IMG/VR virus record: IMGVR_UViG_3300037010_001838
Origin: a virus
Lineage: Duplodnaviria > Caudoviricetes
DNA length: 64,000 nt
Reading direction: 5' to 3' (one strand)
Positions within the stretch are counted from its first letter, which is position 1. Each line of letters starts with the position of its first letter. This document shows, piece by piece, positions 9,208-62,708 of this stretch. The notes under the pieces were generated by a model. That model was not told where the DNA came from. It saw only the letters and a program-made list of their open reading frames with translations, and did no database searches. Position numbers and translations under genes: made by a program.

Positions 9208-9393
9208 CTAATCAACAAAAGATTGACGTTTGTGTTCTAACAACAATCTAGTCCAAACGTCAATCTTTTGTTGTTCAGAAAAAGTTCTCCAATTTTTGAT
9301 TTCATCTATTGTACGAAAGCATCCAACACAAATACCTTTTTCATCTAGCTTACATACATTTGTGCAAGGAGAAGCAACTTCCATTATGTCCAC
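9208..9393 (-). CDS. DUF1289-like small Cys-rich protein
   Basis: SPCTNVCKLDEKGICVGCFRTIDEIKNW. Confidence 0.8.
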   Translation of the reverse strand: MDIMEVASPCTNVCKLDEKGICVGCFRTIDEIKNWRTFSEQQKIDVWTRLLLEHKRQSFVD

Positions 9394-10238
9394 ATGTCCG
9401 AACGAACTTTAATTAAACGAACCATCATATCTGTATCTTCTTCGTGTTGGGCAATTTCGATGCGACTAGAAACTTCATACATATCCTTTTCTTCTTTAGT
9501 TTGCACTCTATCCAAGATATCCCATAAATCTTCTGTGTTATCAAAACGATTTTTAAACGCTTCCGTTCTACCAGAAAGCTCATCTGGTGTCGGACGAACG
9601 GGACGAACATCTTTCCACCAAATATATAAATCCATAATTTCACATGCGGCTTTTGCATGATTCGTTGGCGTACCGAACCTTGAGTCTGTTTCTGGTAAGT
9701 AATCTCCATCACCATGTTTTAGAGTCATTGCCCATTCAAGTGATTTAATTCCTAATTCCCTGGAGCGCCATTGACCAAACCTATATGTTAAAGACCTATT
9801 CCACCAAGGAGTCTTGCTCTTGTATTCTTTTCGGTTTTCTTCATTCCATAAAGCCATGCTTGCTTGTTCAATTTCAACGAAATCAACAAGAAGTTCAAAC
9901 ATGCTGTGAAGTAACACCTCTTCGGTCTCGTGCCATTCACCTTTTTTAAGATGTGTTGAAACAAGGTGAGTTTTACTAATATAACGATTGCGAACGTAAA
10001 CACGAAAACCATCCCATACATCATACGGGAACATAAAAAAGTCTTGTGCTTTATTGAGGAATTCTTCCGTAAACCAATACACGAATTGGTTGTCGTCTTT
10101 AGCAGCTTTTTTCCATTCTTTCCATTGAGTAGAAGTTCCAGCACGTAATTTGGGAGTATTAGAAAAAGTTCTCCGGAACCAGTCAGCGAACTTTGAACAA
10201 GACCAATAGTAACGACGAGAACGATAAATTCGAAACAT
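9384..10238 (-). CDS. Hypothetical phage protein
   Basis: 284-aa ORF with SD AGGAG. Confidence 0.8.
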   Translation of the reverse strand: MFRIYRSRRYYWSCSKFADWFRRTFSNTPKLRAGTSTQWKEWKKAAKDDNQFVYWFTEEFLNKAQDFFMFPYDVWDGFRVYVRNRYISKTHLVSTHLKKGEWHETEEVLLHSMFELLVDFVEIEQASMALWNEENRKEYKSKTPWWNRSLTYRFGQWRSRELGIKSLEWAMTLKHGDGDYLPETDSRFGTPTNHAKAACEIMDLYIWWKDVRPVRPTPDELSGRTEAFKNRFDNTEDLWDILDRVQTKEEKDMYEVSSRIEIAQHEEDTDMMVRLIKVRSDMWT

Positions 10239-10294
10239 GTAAACTCCTTATAAGGTACAATCATATTACCATAAAGATATTAAACGTTCAACTG

Positions 10295-10615
10295 CTATCT
10301 CCGAATTTTATCTTTTTTCTTCTCACCAACGGAACCCTTTTCACCTCTCGTTGGTCCACCGAATTCAGGAACAACTTCTGCTTTGACACGATCCGCTACG
10401 TATTCTTTGAAAGATGTTTTTTTGGAAGCATGATACTTCGCCTCAATCTTTGCAGCAGCCTTTAATGCACGTCCTTTATCGTGGAATTTAGAACAATATT
10501 GATAACCACTTTGTGTTGGGGCTGTCCATGAATAAATGTTCCCCTTCTCTATCATACCAAGGCCAATTACGTCCCCATCTTTTACAAGTTCGATTATATA
10601 CATTTCTTTACCCAA
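10295..10615 (-). CDS. Hypothetical protein
   Basis: 106-aa ORF in minus-strand block. Confidence 0.65.
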   Translation of the reverse strand: MGKEMYIIELVKDGDVIGLGMIEKGNIYSWTAPTQSGYQYCSKFHDKGRALKAAAKIEAKYHASKKTSFKEYVADRVKAEVVPEFGGPTRGEKGSVGEKKKDKIRR

Positions 10616-10909
10616 TTAAACATAACTATTAATAATATTTATAATAACATGTTAAAAGGTTAAGATATGTTTATTGGTTTTACTATATGCCGGGGTGGCA
10701 TAAAGTTAGACTCTAAAAAATCAAGAAAGTTTCATTCCGATTTTTTATCATGTGATAAAATCTTTTTGTGTATTCCCAATAGAGATTATTAGTTTTGAAC
10801 CTGTTGTAGTCAAACCGGGCAATATAGAATTCAATAGTTCATCGTCGATTGGACGTTATTTAACGGACTTCCAACCACCAGTTCCAAAGTTGTTCAATTT
10901 GTTGATTGT

Positions 10910-24075: not shown

Positions 24076-24418
24076 GCTGAAGTTGTTCTATTTGAACTTG
24101 GATCGCTCGACGTTTCATTTGGTTAATTGCGATCACTTGTTTAAGTTCCGAGACTGGAATAAACTTGTCTATTTTATATTCAACTTCTGCAATTCCAATT
24201 CCAATTCCAGAAACTTCTTCGTACATGTAGTCACAACCCTGAAACATCTCTTCTATGTTTGGACATGTACTGTGAATTCCGGTGGTGTTCATTTGCGGCG
24301 ACCAATAAGGGCGTCCACCTGTACCATGATCAACCAACGCAAATATATCATTTCCGTAGTTTTTGTCAATTCCAACAATTACATATCCGATAAACATTTC
24401 ATTCTCCAGTCTCTTCAA
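24056..24418 (-). CDS. Hypothetical protein
   Basis: ORF coupled to the RNA ligase stop. Confidence 0.65.
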   Translation of the reverse strand: MKRLENEMFIGYVIVGIDKNYGNDIFALVDHGTGGRPYWSPQMNTTGIHSTCPNIEEMFQGCDYMYEEVSGIGIGIAEVEYKIDKFIPVSELKQVIAINQMKRRAIQVQIEQLQRELDEI

Positions 24419-25526
24419 TTTTCATATCTTTAAATCCCAATTCTTTCCACTTACTCTTCATGAACTGTTTGTAGTCAGGACTCTTCCCAAGATACAAATT
24501 CATTACACGAGAGAAATACATCGGTGAAACTTCAGCCTGACCTTTAACAGCATAGTCTTTTCGGTCAAGGTGTTTGTTCATTTCATAGAACGTCTCAACT
24601 TCATTTACCATGCTGTTAAACATATGATCAACCTTCACCTGCATTTGATCAATCATCATCATTGCAACAGCATCAGTATAGAACATTCCACGAAGATCAT
24701 CAACACCTTCATCAAGAATACACTCAAACAATCGACGAGGATTGTTGACAGAATCTTTCGCGTGGTGCAAGGAAATGTATTCATCACACTTCACTTTGAC
24801 GAATTTGCCCTGTTGATACTCAATCACAAATCCTTCAACACCATGCATTAAGGCGACTGATTCAACGAATGATGTCGTAGATTCTACGTCAATAACGTCA
24901 ACCCAGTGATTCAACACATTGGGGTAATCCACCAGTTCGTCTTTATTAACAAAACGACCGGTTTTGTTGTAGCGAATGTTTAGTACAGTGAGGTGAGTTT
25001 CAGGATAGCCAATAACGATTCTATTTTCGGGACCACATAGTTCCATGTTGACTGTTAGATCAGCATGAGCCAGGTCCAATAGTTCATCACTGAACGATTT
25101 GTTTTTTGACAATAAAGCATATGCTTGTGCCACTTGATTAGAGAACAAAGAAGTTTTTGATTTAATACCCAACCTGTTGTTGTGAAGGAACGTTGAGATT
25201 AAACTACCATCCTTTTTCACCATGATCTGTTTTGTGTTAGAAAAGTCAATATCCATGGTGAATGGATTCTCACGCCAGTTGAAGAATTTGGGTAATACCC
25301 AAGAAGCCAATCTGACCGGCTGAGCATTCTCCCCTTGATTGGTGACTTCAAACAAATGACCACGACATTCCAGTGCATCAGGAAGAAGAAAATCAGAATA
25401 AGAAGCAAGGCGATACGTAAAACACCGATACCAGTTGTTGTCCAGTTGTTGGTCGACAAAGTAGAAGGCTTCGTTATTCACAAGAGCCATCAAGTTGTTA
25501 TACAATTCAGTCTGACGTTCATTCAT
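24399..25526 (-). CDS. rnlA: T4 Rnl1-like RNA ligase
   Basis: FTYRLASY, ECRG, PKFFN, motif I KKDGSLIS, EGFVI, VKVKCDEY, LH; ATG 25526 with SD GGAG. Confidence 0.88.
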   Translation of the reverse strand: MNERQTELYNNLMALVNNEAFYFVDQQLDNNWYRCFTYRLASYSDFLLPDALECRGHLFEVTNQGENAQPVRLASWVLPKFFNWRENPFTMDIDFSNTKQIMVKKDGSLISTFLHNNRLGIKSKTSLFSNQVAQAYALLSKNKSFSDELLDLAHADLTVNMELCGPENRIVIGYPETHLTVLNIRYNKTGRFVNKDELVDYPNVLNHWVDVIDVESTTSFVESVALMHGVEGFVIEYQQGKFVKVKCDEYISLHHAKDSVNNPRRLFECILDEGVDDLRGMFYTDAVAMMMIDQMQVKVDHMFNSMVNEVETFYEMNKHLDRKDYAVKGQAEVSPMYFSRVMNLYLGKSPDYKQFMKSKWKELGFKDMKIEETGE

Positions 25527-25929
25527 GTAAGATTCTCCAAGAGTTGTCGTAATATACGCTAAAAAGTTGTTGGGGTCAACGTGTGGTATCATACACACCA
25601 TCAAGCGGAGGAAACCATAATGTCCAAAAAAGATCCAACGACCACGTACACTCCCAAAACGCTTATTGGAGGAGATAATGAATGCTTCCAGTTGAACGAA
25701 ACAGATGTGGCTTTATTGGTTGAGCACGTTAATGGTTGTAGTGAAAAATCTTCGCATCATTCCTTGGGAGGATAATGCGAAGAAGGGGAACAAGTTTGAG
25801 TGTTAAGATTTTCTGGCGGTGCTCTTAATTTGATCTTTCAAATACATCAAGTCGGTAAAGTTTTTCACCAACGCAGTACTTGTTCCACAGTGCAGGAACA
25901 TTATCTACCAATTAGGAGAATGAGTCAAC

Positions 25930-28582: not shown

Positions 28583-29590
28583 ATGCGACATCTTGCTACT
28601 ATTCGAAAAATCGATGACATTCAACCTATCCCTGATGCTGACGCTATTGAAGTTGCGTTGATTGGAGGATGGAAAGTTGTCGTCAAAAAAGGTGAATTTG
28701 AACCTGGTAACCTTGTGATATATTGTGAAGTTGATAGCTTCATCCCACACGACATTGCCCCTTTCCTGACTAAAGGTGATAATGCTCCTTTTGTATACGA
28801 AGGTATCTCTGGGGGACGTCTGCGCACTGTTCGATTGAGGGGGCAAGTGAGTCAGGGCCTTGTTCTCCCCATCCCCACATCCATGTTGGTGTTTAATGAG
28901 GGTGAAGATGTCACCGACCTCCTTGGCATCGTCAAGTACGAACCTCCAATCCCAGCTCAACTGGCTGGTGTAGTTAAGGGAGCTTTTCCATCTGTATTTC
29001 CCAAGACAGATGAAGAACGAATTCAGAATCTCACTAGTAACTGGGAAGAATTGAAGCAACTAACTTATGAGGTTACTGAGAAGCTTGAGGGTAGCTCGAT
29101 GTCTGTCGGTCGAATTGATGGTGAGTTCATCGTATGTTCTCGGAACTTGAACTTGAGAGAAACTGAAGGTAATTCTTTGTGGGCTCAAGCTCGTAAGTAT
29201 AACATCGAACAGCAGTTGATTGAAACGGGCTTGGATGATATCATTATTCAGGGTGAAATTATCGGAGAAGGTATACAGGGTAACCATTATGGGTTGAAGG
29301 GTCAAGACTTCTACGTGTTCGCGATATATGACATTAAGTTAGGATGTTTTCTTTCCCCTAACCAGCGGCGTCAATTGTGTGAAGAACTTGGACTTAAGCA
29401 CGTCCCCGTAATTCACGAAGAGTATGTGTTTCCACCTGAAACTTCTGTTCAGGATGTGTTGTCGATGGCAGATGGAACGAGTAAACTTACTGGTAAACTC
29501 CGAGAAGGAGAAGTATACAAGCGAGTTGATGGACGAGAACATTGGAAGGCTGTCAGCAATGAATATCTTTTTAAATACGGAAGAGGTTAA
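28583..29590 (+). CDS. RNA ligase, Rnl2/DRB0094-like
   Basis: N-terminal OB-type MRHLATIRKI...GWKVVVKKGEF; PKTDEERIQN; TEKLEGSS; QGEIIG; REGEV; KAVSN. Confidence 0.88.
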   Translation: MRHLATIRKIDDIQPIPDADAIEVALIGGWKVVVKKGEFEPGNLVIYCEVDSFIPHDIAPFLTKGDNAPFVYEGISGGRLRTVRLRGQVSQGLVLPIPTSMLVFNEGEDVTDLLGIVKYEPPIPAQLAGVVKGAFPSVFPKTDEERIQNLTSNWEELKQLTYEVTEKLEGSSMSVGRIDGEFIVCSRNLNLRETEGNSLWAQARKYNIEQQLIETGLDDIIIQGEIIGEGIQGNHYGLKGQDFYVFAIYDIKLGCFLSPNQRRQLCEELGLKHVPVIHEEYVFPPETSVQDVLSMADGTSKLTGKLREGEVYKRVDGREHWKAVSNEYLFKYGRG

Positions 29591-30398: not shown

Positions 30399-30474
30399 GG
30401 GCCTGTAGCTCAGAGGAAGTAGCAGGGTGCTCATAACGCCAAGGTCGAGGTATCGTAATCCTCCAGGCCCACCA
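30399..30474 (+). tRNA. tRNA-CAU, probably Ile2 (or Met), atypical T-loop
   Basis: Acceptor GGGCCTG/CAGGCCC-ACCA; loop CTCATAA. Confidence 0.75.
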
Positions 30475-30590
30475 AATTTTTGTTGACTTTATGGGATACT
30501 TAATATATAATAGTCTCATAGTAAAGAAGGAGTTAGAAGAATGACTCAGAAGTAAATGTTTTTGGTGTGACTGTTCTTTTATAATTTAAT

Positions 30591-30910
30591 GCCCCGATGG
30601 TGAAATAGGTAGACACAAGGGATCGCATGACGCTAGTCCCCCTCAATTGGAAACTTTGAGTAAACTATGGGTTAATTCGGGAGAGCCTTTAAAATGGCAA
30701 TCGCGAGCCAAGCAAGTGATACATCACTTGAAGGTGTAGAGACTACTGGAGAGGTTTAGTCCTCTTAATAACCAGCTTTGAACGCCCATTACCTGACCAA
30801 ATGATGTTGAAGGTAAAGAGATAGTCCGGGCTTGAAGGAAACTTCGAGACACAACCGCTTAAAATCCCTCGCTTTCGAGCGTGCCAGTTCAAATCTGGCT
30901 CGGGGCACCA
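30591..30910 (+). tRNA. tRNA-Leu(UAA) interrupted by a group I intron
   Basis: Exon 1 GCCCCGATGGTGAAATAGGTAGACACAAGGGA; exon 2 CTTAAAATCCCT...TCGGGGCACCA. Confidence 0.85.
30623..30857 (+). mobile_element. Group I self-splicing intron, ~235 nt, no ORF
   Basis: Core elements GGCAATCGCGAGCCAAGC, GAAGGTGTAGAGACTA, GGTAAAGAGATAGTCC; IGS AGTCCC; GAAA-capped P9; terminal G 30857. Confidence 0.85.
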
Positions 30911-31027
30911 TTTTTTAACTTTTTGTTTTTACAACAAAAAGTTGGTAATAATGAATCACAGTTAGGACAAACTGTTCTCAAGTTCTCTAATCTATGATCA
31001 TCATTTATTCCATTAATATGACCTAAG

Positions 31028-31065
31028 GTGAACTACCCAATTACTTTAGCAATTGGGTAGTTCAC
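31028..31065. repeat. IS200/IS605-like palindromic end remnant
   Basis: GTGAACTACCCAATT-ACTTTAGC-AATTGGGTAGTTCAC; related inverted copy at 59168. Confidence 0.6.
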
Positions 31066-31143
31066 AAGATTGCCGGATATAGTGACCAAAACTTTTTGTT
31101 GACTTTATAAATAGATTGCTATAAAATGTATATATAGTGTGTG

Positions 31144-31279
31144 TAGTAAAGAATGTTAGGTTTTGGGCTGCAATCCAAAACTAATGTGAGGTAATAAGAT
31201 TGGCCAGTCGAATTACCCAAGGCTACAGGCAGCGCACCGTCGCTGTCGGAGGTTTCGATTCCTCTTACATTCTTTACTA
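31144..31279 (+). ncRNA. tRNA-like multibranched RNA of unknown function
   Basis: Perfect 13-bp closing stem 31144-56/31267-79; T-arm-like GAGG-TTTCGATT-CCTC; three internal hairpins; directly after a promoter. Confidence 0.5.
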
Positions 31280-31356
31280 AATACATTTTTGTGTATTTCA
31301 GAAACTCAGTTGAGACGTTTATCGGGAACATCACCCCGAATCTGAAATACCTTTTT

Positions 31357-31429
31357 GCAGGAATAGCATATTGAATGCGTTAGGGGTCCACCTTAAAGAA
31401 GTTGGTTCAATCCCAACTTTCCTGCTCCA
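31357..31429 (+). tRNA. Atypical tRNA-Gly(UCC)-like (G at position 33)
   Basis: GCAGGAA/TTCCTGC-T-CCA; loop GGTCCAC. Confidence 0.55.
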
Positions 31430-31443
31430 TACATAGTATTATT

Positions 31444-31519
31444 GCGGTGTTAGCTCAGTAGGTAGAGCGCGATCCTTCCAAGTTCGAGGCCGTCGGTTCG
31501 AGACCGACACACCGCTCCA
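31444..31519 (+). tRNA. tRNA-Gly(UCC)
   Basis: Canonical cloverleaf, CTTCCAA loop, TCCA end. Confidence 0.92.
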
Positions 31520-31534
31520 AAATAAAATAAAATT

Positions 31535-31790
31535 AAAGTGCCTTCATAGCGAAGGTCTGATATAAAGGAACGATAAACGATATAGCCACTGCCATGGACT
31601 GTCAATAATCGTTCGCTCTGGCAGGAGAAAGAGGCTAACCTTTTCGTTGAGGTGAACCCTCCAGACTGGTCGCTATGAAGGTGCTTTAATAACTCAGCAC
31701 GACGTGCGCTGGCAGACATGGAAACCAACTCGAAAGAGCGCTGGTAAACCCATAGTGGATTGGAAACACAGGCCAATCATTTCTGAGTTA
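31535..31790 (+). ncRNA. Candidate large structured ncRNA
   Basis: 18-bp stem 31535-52/31670-87 plus 31554-59/31662-67; several GAAA-capped hairpins; no sense ORF. Confidence 0.5.
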
Positions 31791-31810
31791 TATTTTATTA
31801 GTTAGATATT

Positions 31811-31887
31811 CGGATATTAGCGCAGCCTGGTAGCGCATTTGCTTTGGGAGCAAAGGGTCGTAGGTTCGAATCCTACATGTCCGACCA
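31811..31887 (+). tRNA. tRNA-Pro(UGG)
   Basis: CGGATAT/ATGTCCG-ACCA; TTTGGGA loop. Confidence 0.92.
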
Positions 31888-31894
31888 AATTTAT

Positions 31895-31970
31895 GCTGTG
31901 TTAGCTCAGTTGGTAGAGCACTTGCCTTGTAAGCATGAGGTCGTCAGTTCAAATCCGACACACAGCACCA
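31895..31970 (+). tRNA. tRNA-Thr(UGU)
   Basis: GCTGTGT/ACACAGC-ACCA; CTTGTAA loop. Confidence 0.92.
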
Positions 31971-36600: not shown

Positions 36601-37752
36601 ATGATTCTACCTTTTGATCATTCAAAAGTTCGGTTCCAAAATGTAAAAATCAAACGTGTGTCCACAGCTCTTGGTGGTTCAATGTCCATCCTCGATGAGA
36701 AGGTGTTTGCTGATACTGGCAAAGAGAAATTCATCAAAATTGATATTCCTTTATCTCTTGCTCGTATGTTCAAAGTGAAATATGGAATGTCCCAGTTCTT
36801 CATCCCACATGAAGGTCTAATCATGTGGTACGGTGACAAAGTTATAACGATCGAAAAAGCCAACGAAAACAGTCGGGTAATTGAATCTATTGATGGAACT
36901 GAACGTGTTTGGACTTCAAACACGGAAATTCATTTTCGTAATGCAGTCAGTACTTTCTTTGATAATTCCAATGTTGATTGGCTCTTTGATGGACTATACG
37001 TCTATAACTTTGGAGTACATTGGGACAACCAAACAATGCTTGATTTGGTAAAGTCAAGTAAACAGATTGATGAACATGGACTATTTCGTTCAGTTCCTTG
37101 TGAAGCGATTCATTTCACTTATCTGAATTTCAAACCTGCAGAACAAGAAAGTCGTGCGTGTGTTGCAATTCTTCCGAATTTGGACACATTCAGTATCTCT
37201 GCTCCAATATGGAAGACGCTTGGAACTGAAAATGCACGAATCTTGCATTCATCAGACGTGGAGTCAGATAGTGGAAAACCAGCATCTTTGGTTTCATCTC
37301 TGAAAGGTGTTGACAAACAAATTGCTGTTAATTTGAACTTTGCTCTTCGGTCAGCAAAAGAACTCACTGATCAATTTGGTTACGAGAGTATTCAACCACT
37401 CCAACTTCCAAAAATGATGATTCAACTGAAGACAGTGAACATTCCAAGACTTCCGAAAGAGGTCAAGGCAACAACTGATATTGGTTTGAAATTCACACAT
37501 GCACTGTCGTGGTTATTGGGAATGCAGTACAATGCTACCACTCCTAATCAAATCTTTGCTCTTCGTCAGATTATCAAGTACTTGATGTCGAAAGGTCATT
37601 TTTGGAAAGACAAAACAAAACGGAAATCGATTATCCGTGATACATCCAAAATTGCAATTCCCCTACTGTCAGTTCAAGAATTGGAGACGAGATATAATGA
37701 AAGTTTCGTTGTGAGTTCCCCAAAGATAGTAGATAATGTCTCTGTTGTGTAG
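36601..37752 (+). CDS. Hypothetical phage protein
   Basis: 383-aa ORF, promoter, SD GGAG. Confidence 0.8.
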   Translation: MILPFDHSKVRFQNVKIKRVSTALGGSMSILDEKVFADTGKEKFIKIDIPLSLARMFKVKYGMSQFFIPHEGLIMWYGDKVITIEKANENSRVIESIDGTERVWTSNTEIHFRNAVSTFFDNSNVDWLFDGLYVYNFGVHWDNQTMLDLVKSSKQIDEHGLFRSVPCEAIHFTYLNFKPAEQESRACVAILPNLDTFSISAPIWKTLGTENARILHSSDVESDSGKPASLVSSLKGVDKQIAVNLNFALRSAKELTDQFGYESIQPLQLPKMMIQLKTVNIPRLPKEVKATTDIGLKFTHALSWLLGMQYNATTPNQIFALRQIIKYLMSKGHFWKDKTKRKSIIRDTSKIAIPLLSVQELETRYNESFVVSSPKIVDNVSVV

Positions 37753-46266: not shown

Positions 46267-46575
46267 TAAAATAATATTGATGGTTTCGTATTAAACGGTC
46301 AGTTTCTCGTGTCGTTTGATGTTGGGTATGGGATATTCTCCACAAAACTCAATTTTTGGTTTTGTTTATATTGTTTAGAACTTTAACGTGAAGAGTGTAA
46401 CTCATTATGATGTTTACTTATTGTGTAATATATAGGTAATTATATACAAAAGACGATAAAGTATTAACAGAAATTTAACTGGGAACGTTTTGTGTAGATT
46501 ATCGTATATACAGAACAATCACCTCTTTTTATTTTGAGGTGTGTGTTCCAATAAATGGTCTGAAACGAAGAATAA

Positions 46576-46908
46576 CTATCTCCTCATTTTTGCAATGTCT
46601 TCTGCTTCTTCTTGAGAGAAAACTGGAATAGCGTTACTTTTGTGCATTGTACTAATCCCTACAATCTTATCACCTGTATAAACGGGTGATGGAATTTTTG
46701 CTGTATCTCCAATCGTTGGTTTGTGACTATTAATTGGAGGTGGTAGTCTGTCTTCAGGGATTCCTAATTTATATGTTGATTTTGGAGGAGGAGAATCTGG
46801 ATTACATTTCCATTTCTGGTTAATGTAATCCGTCATCGCCTTATCGGCCTTTTGTTTCGCTGATGATTTCTTTTTCCGTTTAGATGAAGACTTCATGTAC
46901 ACAATCAT
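46576..46908 (-). CDS. Basic phage protein
   Basis: YTGDKIVGISTMHKSNAIPVFSQEEAEDIAKMRR. Confidence 0.75.
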   Translation of the reverse strand: MIVYMKSSSKRKKKSSAKQKADKAMTDYINQKWKCNPDSPPPKSTYKLGIPEDRLPPPINSHKPTIGDTAKIPSPVYTGDKIVGISTMHKSNAIPVFSQEEAEDIAKMRR

Positions 46909-54327: not shown

Positions 54328-54540
54328 TTAATTTGAAACTGTTAGAAGAGCGGGGCACCACTCAGGTGCTCTATCTCTTTCATACCAACAATTTGAAATT
54401 ATTTTATTGTTAACTCCACAGACTACTTGTATTCCTCGGTCATATTCTTCTGGCGTATTACAGTAGTAATCAGTTATTAATTGAGTACATCCTTTACAGT
54501 GATATGTAATTGTCATTGATGGTCCAAAATTGTTTTCCAT
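54328..54540 (-). CDS. Small Cys-rich protein
   Basis: CKGC...C...PEWCP. Confidence 0.55.
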   Translation of the reverse strand: MENNFGPSMTITYHCKGCTQLITDYYCNTPEEYDRGIQVVCGVNNKIISNCWYERDRAPEWCPALLTVSN

Positions 54541-56798
54541 TATCTCACCTTTGTTGTTATGTCTTCATACACCCGATTGTGAGTGTTATTCACTCTAATA
54601 AACGTTGCACGTTTTGAAAGTTCCTTTAGTGTTTTACTTCCTGTATATGTACACGTACTCCGAACCCCACCTAGAATATGGTTAATTGTATCTTTAACTG
54701 GTCCTCGATATGGAAGTTCGATTGTTCGTCCTTCACTCGAGCGATATTCAGCCAAACCCCCACTGTGAGCTTCCATTGCTGTAGATGAACTCATCCCGTA
54801 GAATTGGACAAACTTACGCTCTACTTCCAAACACTCAAGAGAAGAACCATCAATATCTTTTATAACTTCGTTAGTTTTATACCACTTCGAACTTACTTCA
54901 CCTCCACCTTCGTCGTGTCCAGCGAACATTCCACCACTCATTACAAAATCAGCGCCACCTGCAAATGCTTTTGCAAAGTCTCCAGGAGTATTACATCCCC
55001 CATCGGAACACAACCTTCCGCCTAATCCATGAACAGCATCAGCACATTCTATAATTGCACTCAATTGGGGAAAACCAATTCCAGACACTAACCTTGTGGT
55101 ACAAACTGAATTGTGAACAATCATGTTGTTTGCAATGAAACTGTGGGTTGGGTGATCAATTTCCAAATCGTAGACGGGAACCTCACACTCTGTTGGGTTT
55201 TCAATTTCAAGTATTTTTATAACCTGATAATGTGAAAGATGTCTTTTTTTGTGAGAGGTCGCCAGAAAACTTCGATATCCATCTTTTCGGGGGTGTTGCA
55301 TAGGATATGAAGACCGTTTCCCGTTGTTTGACATATTTGGGAAACTCCCAAATATATTAAACGTAATCCAGCTGAATAGTTCCATGAGTTGTTGTGACGT
55401 GTTGTTAAAATTAACCTGGCCTTCTTTTGTAATGTGGCCGTCACTATCAACTAATCCATCATACAATCCCCGCAAATATTCTGTGTTGGTGCACATGAAT
55501 TGGTCTGGAAGATGTTTTTCATGGAACTTTCCAAACTGTTGGAAAAATTCTTCCCACTGTTTACTATACAAGGTGATCGTGGTCAACGTTTTCCGTTTAT
55601 TAGAACATACTGGGATTTTACCCGTAACCATCTCAACAGCAGACATTAATTTAACTACATGATGTTGATCTCTTGAGTTTATATACCACTCAACACCTTC
55701 AGAAAAACTTGAAAATCCCCTGCTGTTGGTTCCTTTTGTTTTTCTTGAAGTACCATCTCCAAGAAAAAAACCAAACACATAACCAGTGTTGTAATCAGAT
55801 TTAACAATAGTGTTATAATTATCCAAATGCTCTTCTCGTATAAAATAACTTGAAATATCGATATGAAAACTATCTGGTGTTTCCCAATTAATATTGATGG
55901 GAAGTAAAGCTACATCTTGTCGTATTTCACTCACCGGTTTCCATTTTATTTTTTCCTCTCCCAAACGAGTAGGAACCTCCAGCGCCTTTTTATACCCTTT
56001 GCTTTGTAGTGTTGTAATACTAATAGAATTTAGATCACCTACGTAACAATGATGGTCAGGAGTTAGTCTCAACGGAATGTTGAAGTGATCATGTTTTATC
56101 TGTGTTGTTTTCTTATATCCTGTGGTATAAGCGGATAACACAGTTGCTGGTTCTCCAGTACTCGTAATTATACGATCCCCAGGTTGAACATCTTTGATAT
56201 TTTTATAAACACCACTGGACATTAAAATTCGAGCATCACCCGTTAAACACCCACTGCCTACTCCAACCTTGATGATATCTGCACCAGATAATACTAATTG
56301 TTCTGCCATTTCAGGTGTAACAACGTTACCAACAAGAAGAGTTGTGTTTGGATATTTGTCTCGTAATTTAGTTACAGTAGATACAAAAGTTTCTGTATAC
56401 CCATTAGCAACGTCAACACACACATTTAAAGGAGGTCTGCCAAACATTTCGATGAAGTGTTCAAGCTTATCGAGGTCACTTTGAGACGTTCCAACTGAAT
56501 AAAAAATATATTGTTCAAATGAGGGATTGTTTTTATAAAAATCTACAAGTTGAACTACTGGATAATGTTTATGTAATGCTACCATCATTTTAAATTCAGC
56601 AAATCGTTCCGCCATTTCAAAAGTTCCAACTCCATCCATATTTGACGCTATAATTGGAATACCAGTCCATTGTTGGTGAGAGTATTTGAATGTGAACGAC
56701 CTTTCAAGAGACACGTCTTTGCGTGAAGTTAGTGATGACCTTTTTGGAATAAGTAGCACATCACCAAAATCCAATTTAACATCCTCTACTATTCTCAT
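54540..56798 (-). CDS. guaC: GMP reductase with intein
   Basis: KLDFGDVLLIPKRS, ASNMDGVGTF, DVANGY, KVGVGSG|SVCTTR, FYGMSS, YRSSEG. Confidence 0.92.
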   Translation of the reverse strand: MRIVEDVKLDFGDVLLIPKRSSLTSRKDVSLERSFTFKYSHQQWTGIPIIASNMDGVGTFEMAERFAEFKMMVALHKHYPVVQLVDFYKNNPSFEQYIFYSVGTSQSDLDKLEHFIEMFGRPPLNVCVDVANGYTETFVSTVTKLRDKYPNTTLLVGNVVTPEMAEQLVLSGADIIKVGVGSGCLTGDARILMSSGVYKNIKDVQPGDRIITSTGEPATVLSAYTTGYKKTTQIKHDHFNIPLRLTPDHHCYVGDLNSISITTLQSKGYKKALEVPTRLGEEKIKWKPVSEIRQDVALLPININWETPDSFHIDISSYFIREEHLDNYNTIVKSDYNTGYVFGFFLGDGTSRKTKGTNSRGFSSFSEGVEWYINSRDQHHVVKLMSAVEMVTGKIPVCSNKRKTLTTITLYSKQWEEFFQQFGKFHEKHLPDQFMCTNTEYLRGLYDGLVDSDGHITKEGQVNFNNTSQQLMELFSWITFNIFGSFPNMSNNGKRSSYPMQHPRKDGYRSFLATSHKKRHLSHYQVIKILEIENPTECEVPVYDLEIDHPTHSFIANNMIVHNSVCTTRLVSGIGFPQLSAIIECADAVHGLGGRLCSDGGCNTPGDFAKAFAGGADFVMSGGMFAGHDEGGGEVSSKWYKTNEVIKDIDGSSLECLEVERKFVQFYGMSSSTAMEAHSGGLAEYRSSEGRTIELPYRGPVKDTINHILGGVRSTCTYTGSKTLKELSKRATFIRVNNTHNRVYEDITTKVR
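55110..56249 (-). mobile_element. 380-aa intein with LAGLIDADG-type endonuclease domain
   Basis: Starts CLTGDARI, ends IANNMIVHN, +1 Ser; blocks GFFLGDG and GLVDSDG. Confidence 0.92.
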
Positions 56799-58497: not shown

Positions 58498-58839
58498 TTG
58501 GTGTTGGTGAGAATGTTTGATTTTAATCTGAATCCACAATCATCTGAACCAACGTCTAAGTGTGTTGTGCGTTTAAAGACATCTGTATGGAACGATAGTC
58601 GTGGTATTCATATTAAAAAAGATATCACATATCTCCGAAGAAAAAGTTTTGGTTTTAATATTTTAGAAGAAGATGTTAGTAATATTGGACCTGAGTTCGT
58701 TGTTTCTGATATCATAAACCTTAACAGTTGTTCTGATGGAATTTACGAAGTAGTTATTTGTAACGAAAGTCATGACTGGGAAACTGGATATGTTGATGCG
58801 TACAACTATAAATTAATAAAGGTGGTAAATGATGAGTGA
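58498..58839 (+). CDS. Hypothetical protein
   Basis: ORF in operon; start uncertain. Confidence 0.6.
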   Translation: MVLVRMFDFNLNPQSSEPTSKCVVRLKTSVWNDSRGIHIKKDITYLRRKSFGFNILEEDVSNIGPEFVVSDIINLNSCSDGIYEVVICNESHDWETGYVDAYNYKLIKVVNDE

Positions 58840-59116
58840 AGAAAACACAATTTGGAAACGTCGTACGAACCTTGATACACATGAAAGAGAATTACGAAAA
58901 GGGTGGATGTACCAATATCACAATACACCTGAATATAAACAATATCAACAGGATATGAAATCTCTCCAAGAAGAATGTGGAAAACTTGGACATGTTCGTG
59001 GGAAGTTTTGGGATAATGGGTTGGGAACAACTTGGTATTATTGTGCCCACTGTGGAGCAACTTTTGATATCGAAAAGTATGATTTGGGTTTATCAGACGC
59101 GGAGGAAGATGAATGA
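58829..59116 (+). CDS. Hypothetical Zn-finger protein
   Basis: CGKLGH...CAHCG. Confidence 0.65.
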   Translation: MMSEENTIWKRRTNLDTHERELRKGWMYQYHNTPEYKQYQQDMKSLQEECGKLGHVRGKFWDNGLGTTWYYCAHCGATFDIEKYDLGLSDAEEDE

Positions 59117-59130
59117 CATTTATCAATCTC

Positions 59131-59205
59131 TCGACTAAGAAAACCCCCAGATGCTTCAGCACCGGGGGTGAACTACCCGATTGCTAAAACAATTGGGTAG
59201 TTCAC
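59131..59205. mobile_element. IS200/IS605-like double-palindrome remnant
   Basis: ACCCCC-AGATGCTTCAGCACC-GGGGGT then GTGAACTACCCGATTG-CTAAAA-CAATTGGGTAGTTCAC. Confidence 0.55.
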
Positions 59206-59289
59206 ATGATATCATTGAACAATTAATCGATAATAACACGGAATGTCAGAAATTTGTTGGTGGTATTTCTGATGGAATAGAATGATTCG

Positions 59290-59318
59290 TTGACTTTTAT
59301 AAATAAGTCATATATACT
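59290..59318 (+). promoter_or_regulatory. Promoter of tRNA cluster 2
   Basis: TTGACT-17-TATACT with TATAAATA inside the spacer. Confidence 0.85.
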
Positions 59319-59354
59319 TATAACACTGAATTAATTACTTAAAGGATTTACAAA

Positions 59355-59450
59355 ATGAACACAAACGGATTAGGTTATTGTCTATCACTCGGGTCTTTAT
59401 CCATATTGGATAAGAGCCAGGTCGCCGTTTGGGGAATTACCAAGATGTAA
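59355..59450 (+). CDS. 31-aa attenuator leader peptide MNTNGLGYCLSLGSLSILDKSQVAVWGITKM
   Basis: SD AAAGGA at 59341, ATG 59355, TAA 59448; overlaps attenuator segments. Confidence 0.8.
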   Translation: MNTNGLGYCLSLGSLSILDKSQVAVWGITKM

Positions 59451-59503
59451 AGAGAAAAAATCCCAAAAGAAAGCCTGGCTCGAAAGACCCAGGCTTTTTT
59501 GTT
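59392..59503 (+). promoter_or_regulatory. Transcription attenuator (1:2 protector, 2:3 antiterminator, 3:4 terminator)
   Basis: 1:2 = 59392-402/59408-18; 2:3 = GAGCCAGG 59414-21/CCTGGCTC 59474-81 plus TTTGGGG/TCCCAAA; 3:4 = AAAGCCTGG 59470-78/CCAGGCTTT 59489-97 plus T-tract. Confidence 0.8.
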
Positions 59504-59536
59504 GTAAACTGTTATTTAAAAATTTGAAATATTTTG

Positions 59537-59655
59537 GGGCATGCGGCGAAGTTGGAGAGTCGCGGCGGACTGACTAGAGAGCATTGGTTTTCCAGTGTTC
59601 TCGACTAAATCCGTTCCCTCGTGGTGAGTAGGTTCGATTCCTACCATGCCCACCA
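59537..59655 (+). tRNA. tRNA-Tyr body with a 33-nt hairpin insert in the anticodon loop
   Basis: GGGCATG/CATGCCC-ACCA; GCGGA-CTG[...]TAAA-TCCGT; insert hairpin GAGAGCATTGG/CCAGTGTTCTC. Confidence 0.75.
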
Positions 59656-59661
59656 ATTTAT

Positions 59662-59747
59662 GCGCTAGTGCCGGAGTAGACGAACGGAACTGCCTGCAAA
59701 GCAGATGGTGAAAGCCCACGTGGGTGCAAATCCTACCTAGCGTTCCA
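59662..59747 (+). tRNA. tRNA-Cys(GCA) with long variable arm
   Basis: CTGCAAA loop; U73; V-arm GGT-GAAA-GCC; T-loop TGCAAAT. Confidence 0.8.
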
Positions 59748-59754
59748 AAATAAA

Positions 59755-59844
59755 GGGGAGTGAAATAAGGCTAGGTGGTCCTGGCGCAGGGTTGTAGCTC
59801 CTGTCCCTCGTGGCAAGAAGTTCGATTCTGTCCTCTCCCCACCA
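59755..59844 (+). tRNA. Atypical tRNA-Tyr(GUA)
   Basis: TTGTAGC loop; 6-bp/4-nt D-arm GCTAGG-TGGT-CCTGGC; ACCA end. Confidence 0.6.
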
Positions 59845-59853
59845 AAATTTAAT

Positions 59854-59930
59854 ACCCTTCTACGCTAATTGGTAACGCGGCAACGCTTAGAACGTTGTGG
59901 TTCTCAGTTCGAATCTGAGGTTGGGTACCA
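59854..59930 (+). tRNA. tRNA-Leu(UAG), short variable loop
   Basis: CAACG-CTTAGAA-CGTTG; ACCA end. Confidence 0.8.
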
Positions 59931-60061
59931 AGTTTGTCCTGTTGTGTGTTGTTTGGAACAATCGCTTTGTTGGTGGTATCTGGCTATTCAAACGAACCAT
60001 AATTCGATACACAAGAAAACAGTTAGAACGTACATTTATAAAGATTAAAACATGATAAATT

Positions 60062-60144
60062 GCCCTGGTGACAAATGCAAATTGGTACAGCTACTGCGCT
60101 AAGAACGCAGGTTTTTACGGGTTCGACTCCCGTCTGGGGCACCA
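60062..60144 (+). tRNA. tRNA-Leu(AAG), expanded D-loop, short variable loop
   Basis: CTGCG-CTAAGAA-CGCAG; ACCA end. Confidence 0.75.
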
Positions 60145-60152
60145 AAAATATT

Positions 60153-60248
60153 ACCGTATCATTCCAGTAGGTGCTGGTAAGAATCCATAAGAGTTGTACT
60201 TGGAGTCCAGGTGCAACACAGGCAGAGCGTGACTGCAATACGGTTCCA
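60153..60248 (+). ncRNA. tRNA-like RNA, anticodon not assignable
   Basis: ACCGTAT/ATACGGT-T-CCA; T-like arm GCAG-AGCGTGA-CTGC. Confidence 0.55.
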
Positions 60249-60257
60249 AAATTTAAT

Positions 60258-60330
60258 GCGGGTTGTCAAGTGGTGTACGTTTGGCCTTCCAAGCCGAAAG
60301 AGGTGAGTTCGAATCTCATAGCCCGCTCCA
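60258..60330 (+). tRNA. tRNA-Gly(UCC), reduced D-arm
   Basis: CTTCCAA loop; GCGGGTT/AGCCCGC-TCCA. Confidence 0.8.
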
Positions 60331-60339
60331 AAATATTAT

Positions 60340-60441
60340 GGCGCAGATAGGTGTAGTTGAAACAGCACTGTGGGAGATTCCTCGAGGCGTAGCTCCCATT
60401 CCTCTGGATAAGTGGGTTAAATTCCCATCCTGTGGCCACCA
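60340..60441 (+). tRNA. Tyr-like tRNA with enlarged (18-nt) anticodon loop
   Basis: TGGGA-[GATTCCTCGAGGC GTA GC]-TCCCA; ACCA end. Confidence 0.5.
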
Positions 60442-60509
60442 AACACGTTTGTCTCATTAATCTATATGACAAGGTGAGCGAGGGTTTGAATCCCTCTTTG
60501 GATACTAGT

Positions 60510-60594
60510 CGGCAAGTGGCTTAGGTAAATTGGTACAGCCCCTGGATTTAAGTTCCAGTGCTCTTGGTTGGGTTCGAATCCCCCTTGCCGACCA
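60510..60594 (+). tRNA. tRNA-Leu(UAA), expanded D-loop
   Basis: CTGGA-TTTAAGT-TCCAG; CGGCAAG/CTTGCCG-ACCA. Confidence 0.75.
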
Positions 60595-60600
60595 AATATT

Positions 60601-60691
60601 GGAGAGTAGCGTCCATGGTGGACAAACTGCCTAGAAAGCAGTCGCCGGCATCTAAGTAGAGCCGCTGGTTCGATTCCTGTACTCTCCGCCA
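60601..60691 (+). tRNA. tRNA-Ser(AGA), 8/4 fold
   Basis: 8-bp acceptor GGAGAGTA/TACTCTCC; CTAGAAA loop; long V-arm; G73. Confidence 0.8.
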
Positions 60692-60696
60692 CATTT

Positions 60697-60780
60697 CCGC
60701 AGGTGGCTTAGGTAAATTGGTACAGCCCCTATCTTCAAACGGTAGTGCTTTTGTGGGTTCGAATCCCTCCCTGCGGACCA
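60697..60780 (+). tRNA. tRNA-Leu(CAA), expanded D-loop
   Basis: CTATC-TTCAAAC-GGTAG; paralogue of 60510. Confidence 0.75.
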
Positions 60781-60792
60781 GACAGTTAAATT

Positions 60793-60876
60793 GCCCCCGG
60801 TGACAAATGCAAATTGGTACAGCTACTGCGCTAAGAACACAGGTTTTTACGGGTTTGACTCCCGTCTGGGGCACCA
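60793..60876 (+). tRNA. Second, slightly degenerate tRNA-Leu(AAG)
   Basis: Near copy of 60062 with TTTGA T-loop and a stem mismatch. Confidence 0.6.
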
Positions 60877-60882
60877 AAATTA

Positions 60883-60969
60883 CGAGTGTGGTGTAATTAG
60901 GTAGATGTAACAGGCTTAAACCCTGCCTGCCTGCCGAAAGGTCGTACCGGTTCGAATCCGGTCACTCGG
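60883..60969 (+). tRNA. tRNA-Leu(UAA), long variable arm, no encoded CCA
   Basis: CAGG-CTTAAAC-CCTG; GGTTCGAATCC. Confidence 0.7.
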
Positions 60970-61029
60970 ACTTTTGTTGATATTTTCGTCATTTTAATAT
61001 ATCATTTAATATATGATGAGAGACTAAAA

Positions 61030-61533
61030 ATGAACAGACATTATCAGAATTATCTTTTTAAGAAGTATCCTGCTCTATATAAAGAACACACTCTTCCGAT
61101 GAGTGAAACTTGTATGTGTTGGGGGGTTACTTGTGGAGATGGTTGGTTTAATCTTATTAATCAATTGTCTGAATTTTTGTGCAGCGATTGGATCTATGAG
61201 AAATACACATACGATCGTATGGTGACTAACCTTGGTCAACTTTTGTATCCAGGTAGTCCTGAAAGTGATTTTAACCCTATTATCACAACTGAGTTGATTG
61301 CCGCAGTCAAAGTAAGGATGGATGATGCAGAACTTTCGATTCCTGTTGCTCGGCAAGTGAAAGAAAAATTTGGAACTCTTCGGTTTTATGTTTCTAACGC
61401 AACTGAAGAACAATATTCAGCAATTCAGTTTGCTGAATATCAAAGTAAAATGATTTGTGAAGTGTGTGGTGCACGAGGAACTGTGGGTGGCCGGGGTTGG
61501 ATTTCAACTCGGTGTATTAAACACAGAAAGTGA
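61030..61533 (+). CDS. Phage protein inside the tRNA cluster
   Basis: CGDGWFNLI...QVKEKFGTLRFY...ICEVCG...RC. Confidence 0.8.
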   Translation: MNRHYQNYLFKKYPALYKEHTLPMSETCMCWGVTCGDGWFNLINQLSEFLCSDWIYEKYTYDRMVTNLGQLLYPGSPESDFNPIITTELIAAVKVRMDDAELSIPVARQVKEKFGTLRFYVSNATEEQYSAIQFAEYQSKMICEVCGARGTVGGRGWISTRCIKHRK

Positions 61534-61538
61534 TATAT

Positions 61539-61629
61539 GGAAGGTAGTGTCTATGGCAGACAAACTGTTTTGAAAGCAGTCGCCGGCATCTAAGTAGAGC
61601 CGCTGGTTCGATTCCTGTACCTTCCGCCA
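61539..61629 (+). tRNA. tRNA-Ser(UGA), 8/4 fold
   Basis: GGAAGGTA/TACCTTCC; TTTGAAA loop; V- and T-arms identical to 60601. Confidence 0.8.
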
Positions 61630-61648
61630 GTTTTAAAGTTTTAAATTT

Positions 61649-61733
61649 GTCTCGGTGCAGGGAATTGGTAGACTGAATTGTTTCAAAAACAATTGACCGA
61701 AAGGTGGGAGTTCGAGTCTCCCTCGAGACACCA
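61649..61733 (+). tRNA. tRNA-Leu(CAA)
   Basis: ATTGT-TTCAAAA-ACAAT; V-arm ACC-GAAA-GGT; ACCA. Confidence 0.8.
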
Positions 61734-61741
61734 AACAAATT

Positions 61742-61834
61742 GGTCCTGTAGTTTAAAGAAAACAAGATGATTTATAAACATCCAAGGTCCTAGATGAGGG
61801 CAAGTAGTGGGAGCGTTACCCACCAGGACTACCA
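61742..61834 (+). tRNA. Atypical tRNA-Ile(UAU)
   Basis: GATGA-TTTATAA-ACATC; GGTCCTG/CAGGACT-ACCA; T-loop AGCGTTA; long extra arm. Confidence 0.6.
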
Positions 61835-61837
61835 AAT

Positions 61838-61960
61838 TGTTGTGTGAGGGGGATTGGTATACCCCGGCGGTGGAATCATAGTGGGGAGCTCTGTGAAAAC
61901 AGACTAAAATAGTAACCCTTCCAGTAGCTTGTGTAGGTTCGAGTCCTACCACAACAACCA
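61838..61960 (+). ncRNA. 123-nt tRNA-like RNA with expanded central region
   Basis: TGTTGTG/CACAACA-ACCA; D-arm GGGG-ATTGGTATA-CCCC; canonical T-arm; no clear anticodon loop. Confidence 0.55.
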
Positions 61961-62176
61961 ATTGTTGACTTTTACTCTCCATTAGTGTAAAGTATCTTTA
62001 CTTTAAATGTTTGTTGATAAGGTGAACTGTGTCGGAACGTGATTATAAAGAACTTCGAAAAATCGCAAACCAGTTTGTTGATTACAACCTAATACAGTGT
62101 TGCGCAGAACTTGCAGCTATAAGTAACAGGACAGGGGGGAAAACCCCGTTCTTTTGGACTTAAATTAAAAACAGGA

Positions 62177-62452
62177 TTGAATATGACTCATACTGATTTA
62201 TTATATGCTCCACCAGGAACGAAAGTAAGGTTTCTTGATGAACACGGTCTTGATTATAATCGCATTCAAGCTAGAAAACTTGGATTGGTTGAAGGTGGAG
62301 AGTATACACTATCATATATGATTATAAGTGATTATCATACAAATATCTTTCTTGAAGAGTTCCCCGGAAAATCCTTTAATTCTGTAATGTTTAGTTGTAA
62401 ATATGAACATCCGAACAGTCTTTGGATAAATACTACAACAATTAAAGGATAA
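62177..62452 (+). CDS. Hypothetical protein
   Basis: SD AGGA. Confidence 0.65.
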   Translation: MNMTHTDLLYAPPGTKVRFLDEHGLDYNRIQARKLGLVEGGEYTLSYMIISDYHTNIFLEEFPGKSFNSVMFSCKYEHPNSLWINTTTIKG

Positions 62453-62456
62453 TATT

Positions 62457-62708
62457 ATGACAACAACATCAAGACTCATGGAACTCGCTGGAATTGGTCA
62501 ATCGGAAATGCTTATTGAAGCAGTCGAGATTCCTGATAACGTTTCTTTGGACCAAATTGCATCAATGATGGATGCTGCAAAACGTGGTTTGGGAATTGTT
62601 AACAAGATGAAAAACCCCGTAGATAAGAAGAAACACGCCTCTGCTGTTCTATCTAATATGAATAAAATCCGTTCTGCACTTCAACGTGTAATAAGTTCGA
62701 TGGAGTAA
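62457..62708 (+). CDS. Hypothetical, possibly capsid-internal protein
   Basis: SRLMELAGI...LIE N-terminus. Confidence 0.7.
   Translation: MTTTSRLMELAGIGQSEMLIEAVEIPDNVSLDQIASMMDAAKRGLGIVNKMKNPVDKKKHASAVLSNMNKIRSALQRVISSME

Follow-up and report, generated by a model that had tools for sequence, protein, structure and literature searches.

Leader-peptide attenuation of amino-acid operons has been textbook knowledge for decades. In the enterobacterial systems, which include ilvGMEDA (Leu, Val and Ile), thr (Thr and Ile), trpL, hisL, leuL and pheL, a promoter-proximal open reading frame (ORF) of around 30 codons carries clustered regulatory codons, and the position of the ribosome decides between a terminator and an antiterminator which overlaps the 5' arm of that terminator. 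The multivalent leaders among them sense several amino acids together. These features are shared by a locus at positions 59290-61960 of a 64,000-nucleotide stretch of DNA from a virus of the Caudoviricetes (IMGVR_UViG_3300037010_001838; the whole stretch is referred to here as the window), where a promoter, a short leader ORF and an intrinsic terminator precede an array of tRNA genes. The element is probably a multivalent, ribosome-mediated leader-peptide transcription attenuator which gates this phage tRNA operon, one of four such units.

The enterobacterial attenuators control biosynthetic enzymes, whereas the phage units control tRNAs. The phage units differ further in that each leader covers five to eight amino acids, the choice of codons follows the anticodons of the isoacceptors, and the units are phage-borne, in four parallel copies which divide up all 20 amino acids. 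An anti-antiterminator helix (1:2) is not evident in every unit and there is no sequence homology; the Rfam model Thr_leader (RF00506) scores 25.6 bits at 59394-59503, against a gathering threshold of 55, a resemblance attributable to a generic terminator. The pheST attenuator brings leader-peptide attenuation to phenylalanyl-tRNA synthetase and so regulates, as is proposed here, a part of the translation machinery that handles the amino acid sensed. It is cellular, however, and controls a synthetase through a single amino acid. T-box elements likewise report tRNA status through a choice between terminator and antiterminator and control genes serving the same tRNA, but they bind uncharged tRNA via a specifier loop without translation, whereas in the phage units a translated ORF would carry the codons; no Rfam T-box match at an E-value of 1 or below was obtained in 58500-62500. 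The tRNA genes themselves are thought to be controlled mainly at their promoters, through stringent and growth-rate control.

Phage-encoded tRNAs which replace depleted host tRNAs have a precedent in T5, whose tRNA-Lys rescues infection against PARIS; that study concerns the tRNAs themselves and describes no demand-sensing control of their transcription (PMC11464382). A full-text literature search, the reach of which excludes most subscription-journal papers, gave no description of leader-peptide attenuation of tRNA genes, in agreement with the preliminary description of this locus, made from the sequence alone, which knew of none. As far as can be told, the class of mechanism is known, while the target, the matching of codons to anticodons and the phage context are new.

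Organisation and recurrence of the unit

The promoter, 31-codon leader and terminator placed in this order by the preliminary description were all recovered (Table 1). The promoter is close to consensus and forms part of a 30-nt block common to all four tRNA-operon units, while the ORF is present with a Shine-Dalgarno motif and is presumably translated. The terminator is strong, its stem beginning just outside the span of 59470-59500 first given; a simple terminator scan missed it because the stem is bulged. The sequence of codons 5-18 is identical to that quoted earlier. All residues of this run lie within the amino-acid set of the downstream tRNAs, and for 13 of the 14 codons the cluster supplies a cognate tRNA, GGT being the sole exception, as had been claimed.

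Table 1. Features of the window unit (unit A) and its tRNA array in window coordinates, with the tRNA sets of the four units
Feature	Position	Strand	Details
Sigma-70-type promoter, unit A	59290-59318	+	-35 TTGACT, 17-nt spacer, -10 TATACT; 10/12 consensus matches
Shine-Dalgarno motif AAGGA, unit A	59342-59346	+	8 nt 5' of ATG
31-codon leader ORF	59355-59450	+	encodes MNTNGLGYCLSLGSLSILDKSQVAVWGITKM
Regulatory run, codons 5-18	59367-59408	+	Gly, Leu, Gly, Tyr, Cys, Leu, Ser, Leu, Gly, Ser, Leu, Ser, Ile, Leu
Segment 1	59387-59403	+	5' half of the 1:2 anti-antiterminator helix; minimum-free-energy folds
Segment 2	59407-59422	+	59414-59422 (GAGCCAGGU) is the antiterminator partner of the terminator 5' arm
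Intrinsic terminator, segments 3 and 4	59467-59500	+	stem 59467-59481 with 59486-59500, GAAA loop, U-tract, about -16 kcal/mol
boxA-like element TGTTATTTAAAAA	59510-59522	+	10/13 matches to E. coli rrn boxA TGCTCTTTAACAA
tRNA-Tyr(GUA)	59537-59655	+	ARAGORN with introns allowed only; 33-nt hairpin insert in anticodon loop
tRNA-Cys(GCA)	59662-59747	+	86 nt, long variable arm; ARAGORN; Infernal 43.6 bits
tRNA with anticodon UAG (Leu CUA/CUG)	59854-59930	+	ARAGORN; Infernal 48.1 bits
tRNA-like gene, anticodon AAG	60062-60147	+	weak; 20.9 bits, below cut-off
tRNA-Gly(UCC)	60258-60330	+	ARAGORN; 29.9 bits
tRNA-Leu(UAA)-like gene	60510-60597	+	manual reading and fold; uncalled by standard tools
tRNA-Ser(AGA)	60601-60691	+	ARAGORN, Infernal
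tRNA labelled Lys(ctt) by ARAGORN	60697-60780	+	cloverleaf fold gives anticodon CAA (Leu)
Second AAG tRNA-like copy	60792-60877		weak; 20.9 bits; 95% identical to 60062-60147
tRNA-Leu(UAA)	60882-60971	+	ARAGORN, Infernal
tRNA-Ser(UGA)	61539-61629	+	ARAGORN, Infernal
tRNA-Leu(CAA)	61649-61733	+	ARAGORN, Infernal
tRNA with anticodon UAU (Ile AUA)	61742-61834	+	long variable arm; 29.3 bits, borderline; relaxed ARAGORN; fold
Unit A			tRNAs: Tyr, Cys, Leu, Gly, Ser, Ile(UAU)
Unit B			leader MIFTTFFTAFTTPEAWHAPEMAVCALEEGWKN; tRNAs: Pro, Pro, Ala, Glu, Phe, Thr, His, Thr, Trp, Met, Thr, Ala
Unit C			leader MFVTRQQQSISIIRRRQVRRDSDIIMSGGWV; tRNAs: Gln, Gln, Asp, Arg, Val, Ile, Asp, Arg, Ser(GCU), Arg
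Unit D			leader MFDSTKPIFINNVNVNNKRSHAEALTVEIKLII; tRNAs: Val, Asn, Lys, Lys, Lys

The same phage is represented by a longer contig, G002 (IMGVR_UViG_3300035181_001013; 178.8 kb, about 52% complete by estimate), which is around 98% identical to the window over 23265-64000, carries an identical leader A (100%) and reaches past the end of the window. In G002 the promoter block occurs four times, exactly at 37148 (A), 60898 (B) and 74195 (C) and with one mismatch at 80155 (D). Each copy is followed by a Shine-Dalgarno-like motif, an ORF of 31-33 codons, an intrinsic terminator and a tRNA array. The four tRNA sets jointly represent all 20 amino acids, overlapping only in Val, Ile and Ser. This large, uncultured T4-like phage has roughly 50 tRNA genes, of which some 40 belong to the four units. 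The first tRNA cluster of the window (30399-31970) follows protein genes and lacks both leader and attenuator.

Eight units were examined in all: A-D of G002, A', B' and C' of a relative, G003, and one from an unrelated metagenome contig, L110. An (A)GGA(G)-type Shine-Dalgarno motif stands about 8 nt upstream of the ATG in seven of the eight. G003 (IMGVR_UViG_3300020048_000168) has around 70% nucleotide identity and retains the promoter with 0-2 mismatches. Its leaders read MNTNGLCYYLSLGSLSIS... (A'), MTFTTVFTFEHTPAEAWHAPAMP... (B') and MFAVSRTQQIIIDRQRQVRRDSDSISS... (C'), the orthologue of the window leader beginning MNTNGLCYYLSLGSLSISAMNQ... The preliminary description had looked to related phages for covariation, and it is found there both in the leaders and in the RNA structure. 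Apart from a single substitution in each of B' and C', changes within the runs of G003 keep to the respective tRNA sets, whilst the peptide tails diverge freely; cluster C' has Ser(GCU) together with Ser(UGA), and AGT codons occur alongside UCN codons in leader C'. The changes in terminator and antiterminator compensate each other, going from GAGCCAGG with CCTGGCTC in A to AACCAGGC with GCCTGGTT in A', and from GGCTGGGT with ACCCAG.. in C to AACCGGG with CCCGGTT in C'. A co-occurring strain, about 90% identical, is revealed by contigs from three mat and sediment metagenomes. The changes in its run (G7S, L18S and two synonymous Leu substitutions) all stay within the set. A G>A change at 59414 in segment 2 is matched in the terminator arm by an extra T following 59479, and the terminator stem, lengthened by a T and an A inserted as a pair, remains intact. 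In G003 (reverse complement), a protein ORF starting MIELKKEERDTLICVDCKEE... lies at 55440-56271 after the A' terminator, where tRNAs would be expected, and the contig ends some 800 nt further on.

The promoter of L110 (Ga0157365_10001206) differs from the shared block and its terminator is its own; RPYPYPYYPA occurs in the leader, and Pro, Tyr, (Tyr), Pro, (Pro) and Tyr tRNAs follow directly. Asn, Val, Ala, Lys and Arg are frequent in the first half of this leader, no matching tRNAs occur before the contig end, and an IS605-type TnpB ORF (9300-10643) is inserted immediately after the Pro/Tyr array; together these suggest that the array may have been split. Six other metagenome contigs sharing the tRNA-Pro sequence have tRNA arrays and no leader. 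Further relatives were sought by comparing the region with 50,697 phage records (megablast, blastn), which gave matches at the level of tRNAs only and no cultured close relative, by a promoter-pattern search of metagenome contigs, which gave no match, and by searches with the flanking 95-residue protein and the neighbouring protein of L110, which gave no further relatives. A promoter-pattern match in the viral contig L106 was set aside as chance, the promoter preceding a protein gene with no tRNAs nearby.

The recurrence of the unit bears on whether promoter, ORF and terminator could instead form an independent micro-gene or short RNA. The codon match would then be incidental, and other promoters or constitutive read-through would supply the tRNAs. 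The three parts do make up a complete transcription unit of about 175 nt, and the peptide has a hydrophobic stretch. The codon/tRNA match recurs, however, in 4 + 3 + 1 units with unrelated peptides, membership of the tRNA set is kept while the peptides diverge freely outside the run, the antiterminator covaries, and a promoter scan of the stretch from the terminator to the first tRNA (59537) found no promoter-like site. A micro-gene is on these grounds highly improbable. The core claim of the preliminary description, an attenuator with codons matched to the tRNAs it controls, is thus upheld by the four paralogous units, by their relatives and by L110.

A partial check of a cultured phage, phiCbK (NC_019405), suggests that the design is widespread and includes a tractable phage. 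Here a 45-codon ORF and a terminator lie upstream of Pro, Pro, Lys, Lys, three Leu, Ala, Ser and Ser tRNAs, and the tRNA set accounts for 31 of 44 residues (binomial p = 1.8e-6), the run reaching 14. The match of phiCbK unit 4 is only marginal, and unit 2 (Glu/Asp) gave no leader/tRNA match. The phiCbK genome paper, searched by term, mentions neither leaders nor attenuation.

Correspondence between leader codons and downstream tRNAs

The runs of amino acids drawn from the unit's own cluster extend over 14 codons in A, 20 in B, 10 in C and 8 in D, the run of C lengthening from 10 to 21 codons once Ser-GCU, called by relaxed ARAGORN, is counted. Against any other cluster the leaders reach runs of at most 6 codons. 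The chance level of the correspondence proposed in the preliminary description was assessed in three ways. Among 605 ATG-started ORFs of 25-45 codons, taken from all six frames of G002, each leader is alone in reaching its own-set run, save that D is one of two. Of the 188 long ORFs of G002, only one reaches any such run, and this for set A only. The frequency of the set raised to the power of the run gives 3e-7 for A, 2e-10 for B, 2e-6 for C and 2e-6 for D. Finally, codon choice separates the isoacceptors: leader A has Ser UCN three times and Ile ATA, and is followed by Ser(UGA, AGA) and Ile(UAU), while leader C has Ser AGT three times and Ile ATY six times, and is followed by Ser(GCU) and Ile(GAU). 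Given the codon usage of the phage, this match of Ser and Ile codons between A and C has a joint p of 3.5e-4.

This last result speaks to the possibility of a classical amino-acid starvation sensor, in which tRNA transcription would be a by-product or a timer of infection. It is established that attenuators sense charged tRNA, so amino-acid starvation would be expected to open these units too. Extra tRNA, on the other hand, gives no relief of amino-acid starvation, and the leaders separate isoacceptor boxes (Ser UCN from AGY, Ile AUA from AUY) according to the tRNA genes which follow, a discrimination to be expected only where what is regulated is the tRNA species itself. A starvation sensor is accordingly very improbable.

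The match was also sought blind, with a detector that takes short ORFs no more than 400 nt upstream of a tRNA cluster and scores them by their run of cluster amino acids. It placed the leaders of G002 and G003 first, with values of 1e-8 to 2e-3, and among 79 other phage loci (98 ORF tests from those with tRNA clusters) none fell below 7e-3. Applied to the cultured jumbo phages nearest by RnlA (Vibrio 2.275.O, Xoo-sp13 and XaC1), it yielded nothing convincing. A K/Y-rich mini-ORF in Xoo-sp13 was rejected as chance, lying inside a promoter without a Shine-Dalgarno motif or terminator.

RNA folding and the proposed switch

The mutually exclusive 1:2, 2:3 and 3:4 pairings of the preliminary description are all drawn in the folds. 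Helix 1:2 joins 59387-59403 to 59407-59422, and helix 2:3 joins 59414-59422 to 59473-59481 (GCCUGGCUC) over 9 base pairs. The antiterminator duplex of unit A has a predicted energy of -17.5 kcal/mol (codon-shuffle p = 0.004). In all eight units the terminator hairpins have energies of -15 to -18 kcal/mol and are followed by U-tracts, and the ORF makes its best duplex with the terminator 5' arm immediately downstream of the run (codon-shuffle p values of 0 to 0.05 each), at codons 20-23 in A, 24-27 in B, 28-31 in C, 21-24 in D and 35-37 in L110. The 1:2 anti-antiterminator is clear in unit B, partial in A and not evident in C and D in folds of partial transcripts.

The effect of the ribosome was modelled by masking its footprint in transcripts which end before the 3' arm of the terminator. 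With the ribosome of unit A at codons 1-15, the terminator arm pairs with segment 2 with a probability of about 0.9; with the ribosome over segment 2 (codons around 16-28), the 2:3 pairing is lost. The account which the preliminary description gives of the ribosome that covers segment 2 has to be amended. A ribosome in transit over codons 16-28 or so does cover it, whereas one at the stop codon (59448) does not, since it would occupy approximately 59433-59463.

From these folds a stall-dependent switch can be envisaged. Host RNA polymerase would start at the conserved promoter and a ribosome would load on the 31-codon leader. Were the aminoacyl-tRNAs of the run (Gly, Leu, Tyr, Cys, Ser and Ile-AUA) plentiful, the ribosome would cover segment 2 while segments 3 and 4 emerge, the terminator would form and transcription would end at about 59500. 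Were any tRNA of the run scarce, the ribosome would stall in codons 5-15 and leave segment 2 free to pair with 59473-59481, so that the polymerase would read through, pass the boxA-like site and transcribe the tRNA array. As the tRNA product would relieve the stall, the circuit amounts to negative feedback in which tRNA supply is matched to decoding demand. Since each leader is spelled in the codons of its own tRNAs, the phage probably makes each tRNA group only when decoding is slow.

The polarity could in principle be reversed, with efficient leader translation melting the hairpin and tRNA synthesis rising with fast decoding. Transcription-translation coupling can suppress terminators, and its doing so in pyrBI is well established. 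In all eight units, however, the stop codon lies at least 16 nt upstream of the terminator stem (16 nt in the window unit, from 59450 to 59467), so that a terminating ribosome does not reach the terminator. The segment complementary to the terminator arm is, moreover, inside the ORF, so that a translating ribosome removes the antiterminator. Opposite polarity is thus very unlikely, and stalling remains the preferred trigger of read-through.

A number of observations weigh against the attenuator as described. Equilibrium folds of the full-length leader give the terminator for almost any position of the ribosome, and the switch must therefore be kinetic, as in trp. In folds of partial transcripts the antiterminator forms without any ribosome in units A, C and D, so that on a simple model an untranslated leader would read through, unlike the superattenuation of trp. 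The Shine-Dalgarno motif of unit D is poor (a weak AAAGAA). Some codons of the runs have no cognate in their cluster, namely GGT in A, GTA in D and, under strict wobble, CCT, GCC and GCT in B, and each tRNA species is read by only 1-6 leader codons. Several tRNAs of cluster A are aberrant or weakly called, and two or three of its ten anticodons depend on weak calls. Finally, no run on record as RNA contains this DNA.

Beyond the terminator, a boxA-like element precedes the first tRNA in seven of the eight units. By hand count the elements of B, D, B' and C' match the E. coli rrn consensus at 10-11 of 13 positions, those of B' and C' reading AGTTCTTTAACAA and CGCTCTTTAAAAA, and four of the nine matches to the boxA motif in G002 are located at the attenuators. 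As in the boxA-Nus antitermination systems of rrn and lambda, the element stands ahead of a long untranslated operon of structured RNA, the likeness being one of resemblance to the boxA consensus only. It would be expected to make read-through complexes resistant to termination across the array.

What depletes the tRNAs in nature would be one of several candidate triggers, indistinguishable here: the decay of host tRNA that follows shut-off, a host pool poorly suited to the codon usage of the phage, or cleavage by tRNA-targeting defences. A link to host tRNA-cleaving defences is plausible, and the same parts might serve this narrower purpose, as inducible counter-defence sensors opened by tRNA-destroying host immunity rather than as general homeostats. 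The window encodes a T4-type RNA ligase 1 (RnlA; 24399-25604, minus strand) and an Rnl2-type RNA ligase (28583-29590, plus strand). In T4, RnlA and Rnl2 repair cleaved tRNA, and the two ligases together with the tRNA sets suggest that the phage invests heavily in maintaining tRNAs. The anticodon arms of several tRNAs in cluster A are unusual, and phage tRNAs are able to rescue infection from tRNA-cleaving defence (PMC11464382). Set against this, the leaders jointly sample all 20 amino acids, a better fit to global decoding capacity than to a few nuclease targets, and nothing here ties the units to a defence system. A restriction to counter-defence is possible, albeit on balance unlikely.

The two purposes may be combined in a broader and still tentative scheme, in which the four attenuators act together as a genome-wide sensor of decoding capacity and as an inducible counter-defence. 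Only the operon holding the replacement would be switched on, read-through would be protected from termination by boxA, and the aberrant tRNAs of cluster A would be resistant to nuclease, the candidates for such resistance being the anticodon-loop insert of tRNA-Tyr and the class-II bodies with Cys and Ile anticodons. The trigger in this scheme would be a host anticodon nuclease or host shut-off removing any tRNA species.

If the attenuator reading is correct, decoding speed can feed back directly on tRNA supply, the expression of phage tRNA arrays is conditional and not constitutive, and a compact, portable sensor exists which reports the availability of individual tRNA species. It offers a testable answer to the question of why large phages carry near-complete tRNA sets and how the cost of their expression is avoided, and bears on the arms race over tRNA-cleaving defence systems.

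The tRNA array and other features of the window

With default settings ARAGORN calls eight tRNA genes in 59662-61733, most of them supported by Infernal. The ten anticodons listed in the preliminary description are essentially right: Cys GCA, Leu UAG, Gly UCC, Ser AGA, Leu UAA, Ser UGA and Leu CAA are well supported, while Tyr GUA appears only with introns allowed, Ile UAU is borderline and the AAG genes are weak. The insert of the tRNA-Tyr gene is a perfect hairpin of 11 base pairs with a UUUU loop and is not a group I intron. ARAGORN places it at positions 36/37 (gactg-insert-taaat), whereas our own reading of the loop places it between G34 and U35 of GUA. The gene is missing from the co-occurring strain (joint 59528>59655), and homologues of its 5' half without the intron occur in the same metagenomes.

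The genes at 59662-59747, 61742-61834 and 60697-60780 have oversized D-loops, and class-II bodies with long variable arms are combined with Cys (GCA) or Ile (UAU) anticodons. Such odd tRNAs could be nuclease-evading variants or decaying duplicates. Three pairs of paralogues (60062-60147 and 60792-60877, 60510-60597 and 60697-60780, 60601-60691 and 61539-61629) are 80-95% identical, which indicates that the array has expanded by local duplication. Within it lies an ORF of 167 codons (61030-61533) with its own promoter-like site (60977-61005); its product belongs to no Pfam or PHROG family and has 582 relatives on viral contigs, several of which adjoin tRNA clusters.

Elsewhere among the tRNA genes, a group I intron (30619-30848; Rfam 61.1 bits) lies within a tRNA-Leu(UAA) gene of the first cluster. 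Past the end of the window, at 46568-46641 of G002, there is a tRNA with the anticodon CUA, an amber suppressor which ARAGORN labels 'Pyl'. The stop codon of leader C is TAG, and were it suppressed the ribosome would run through the unit C terminator. On the minus strand of the window, at 54540-56798, an IMPDH/GMP-reductase-like gene is split by an intein with a LAGLIDADG domain. Upstream of the unit A promoter, the ORF at 58829-59116 is followed at 59137-59209 by two adjacent hairpins, CCCCC..GGGGG and GAACTACCC..GGGTAGTTC.

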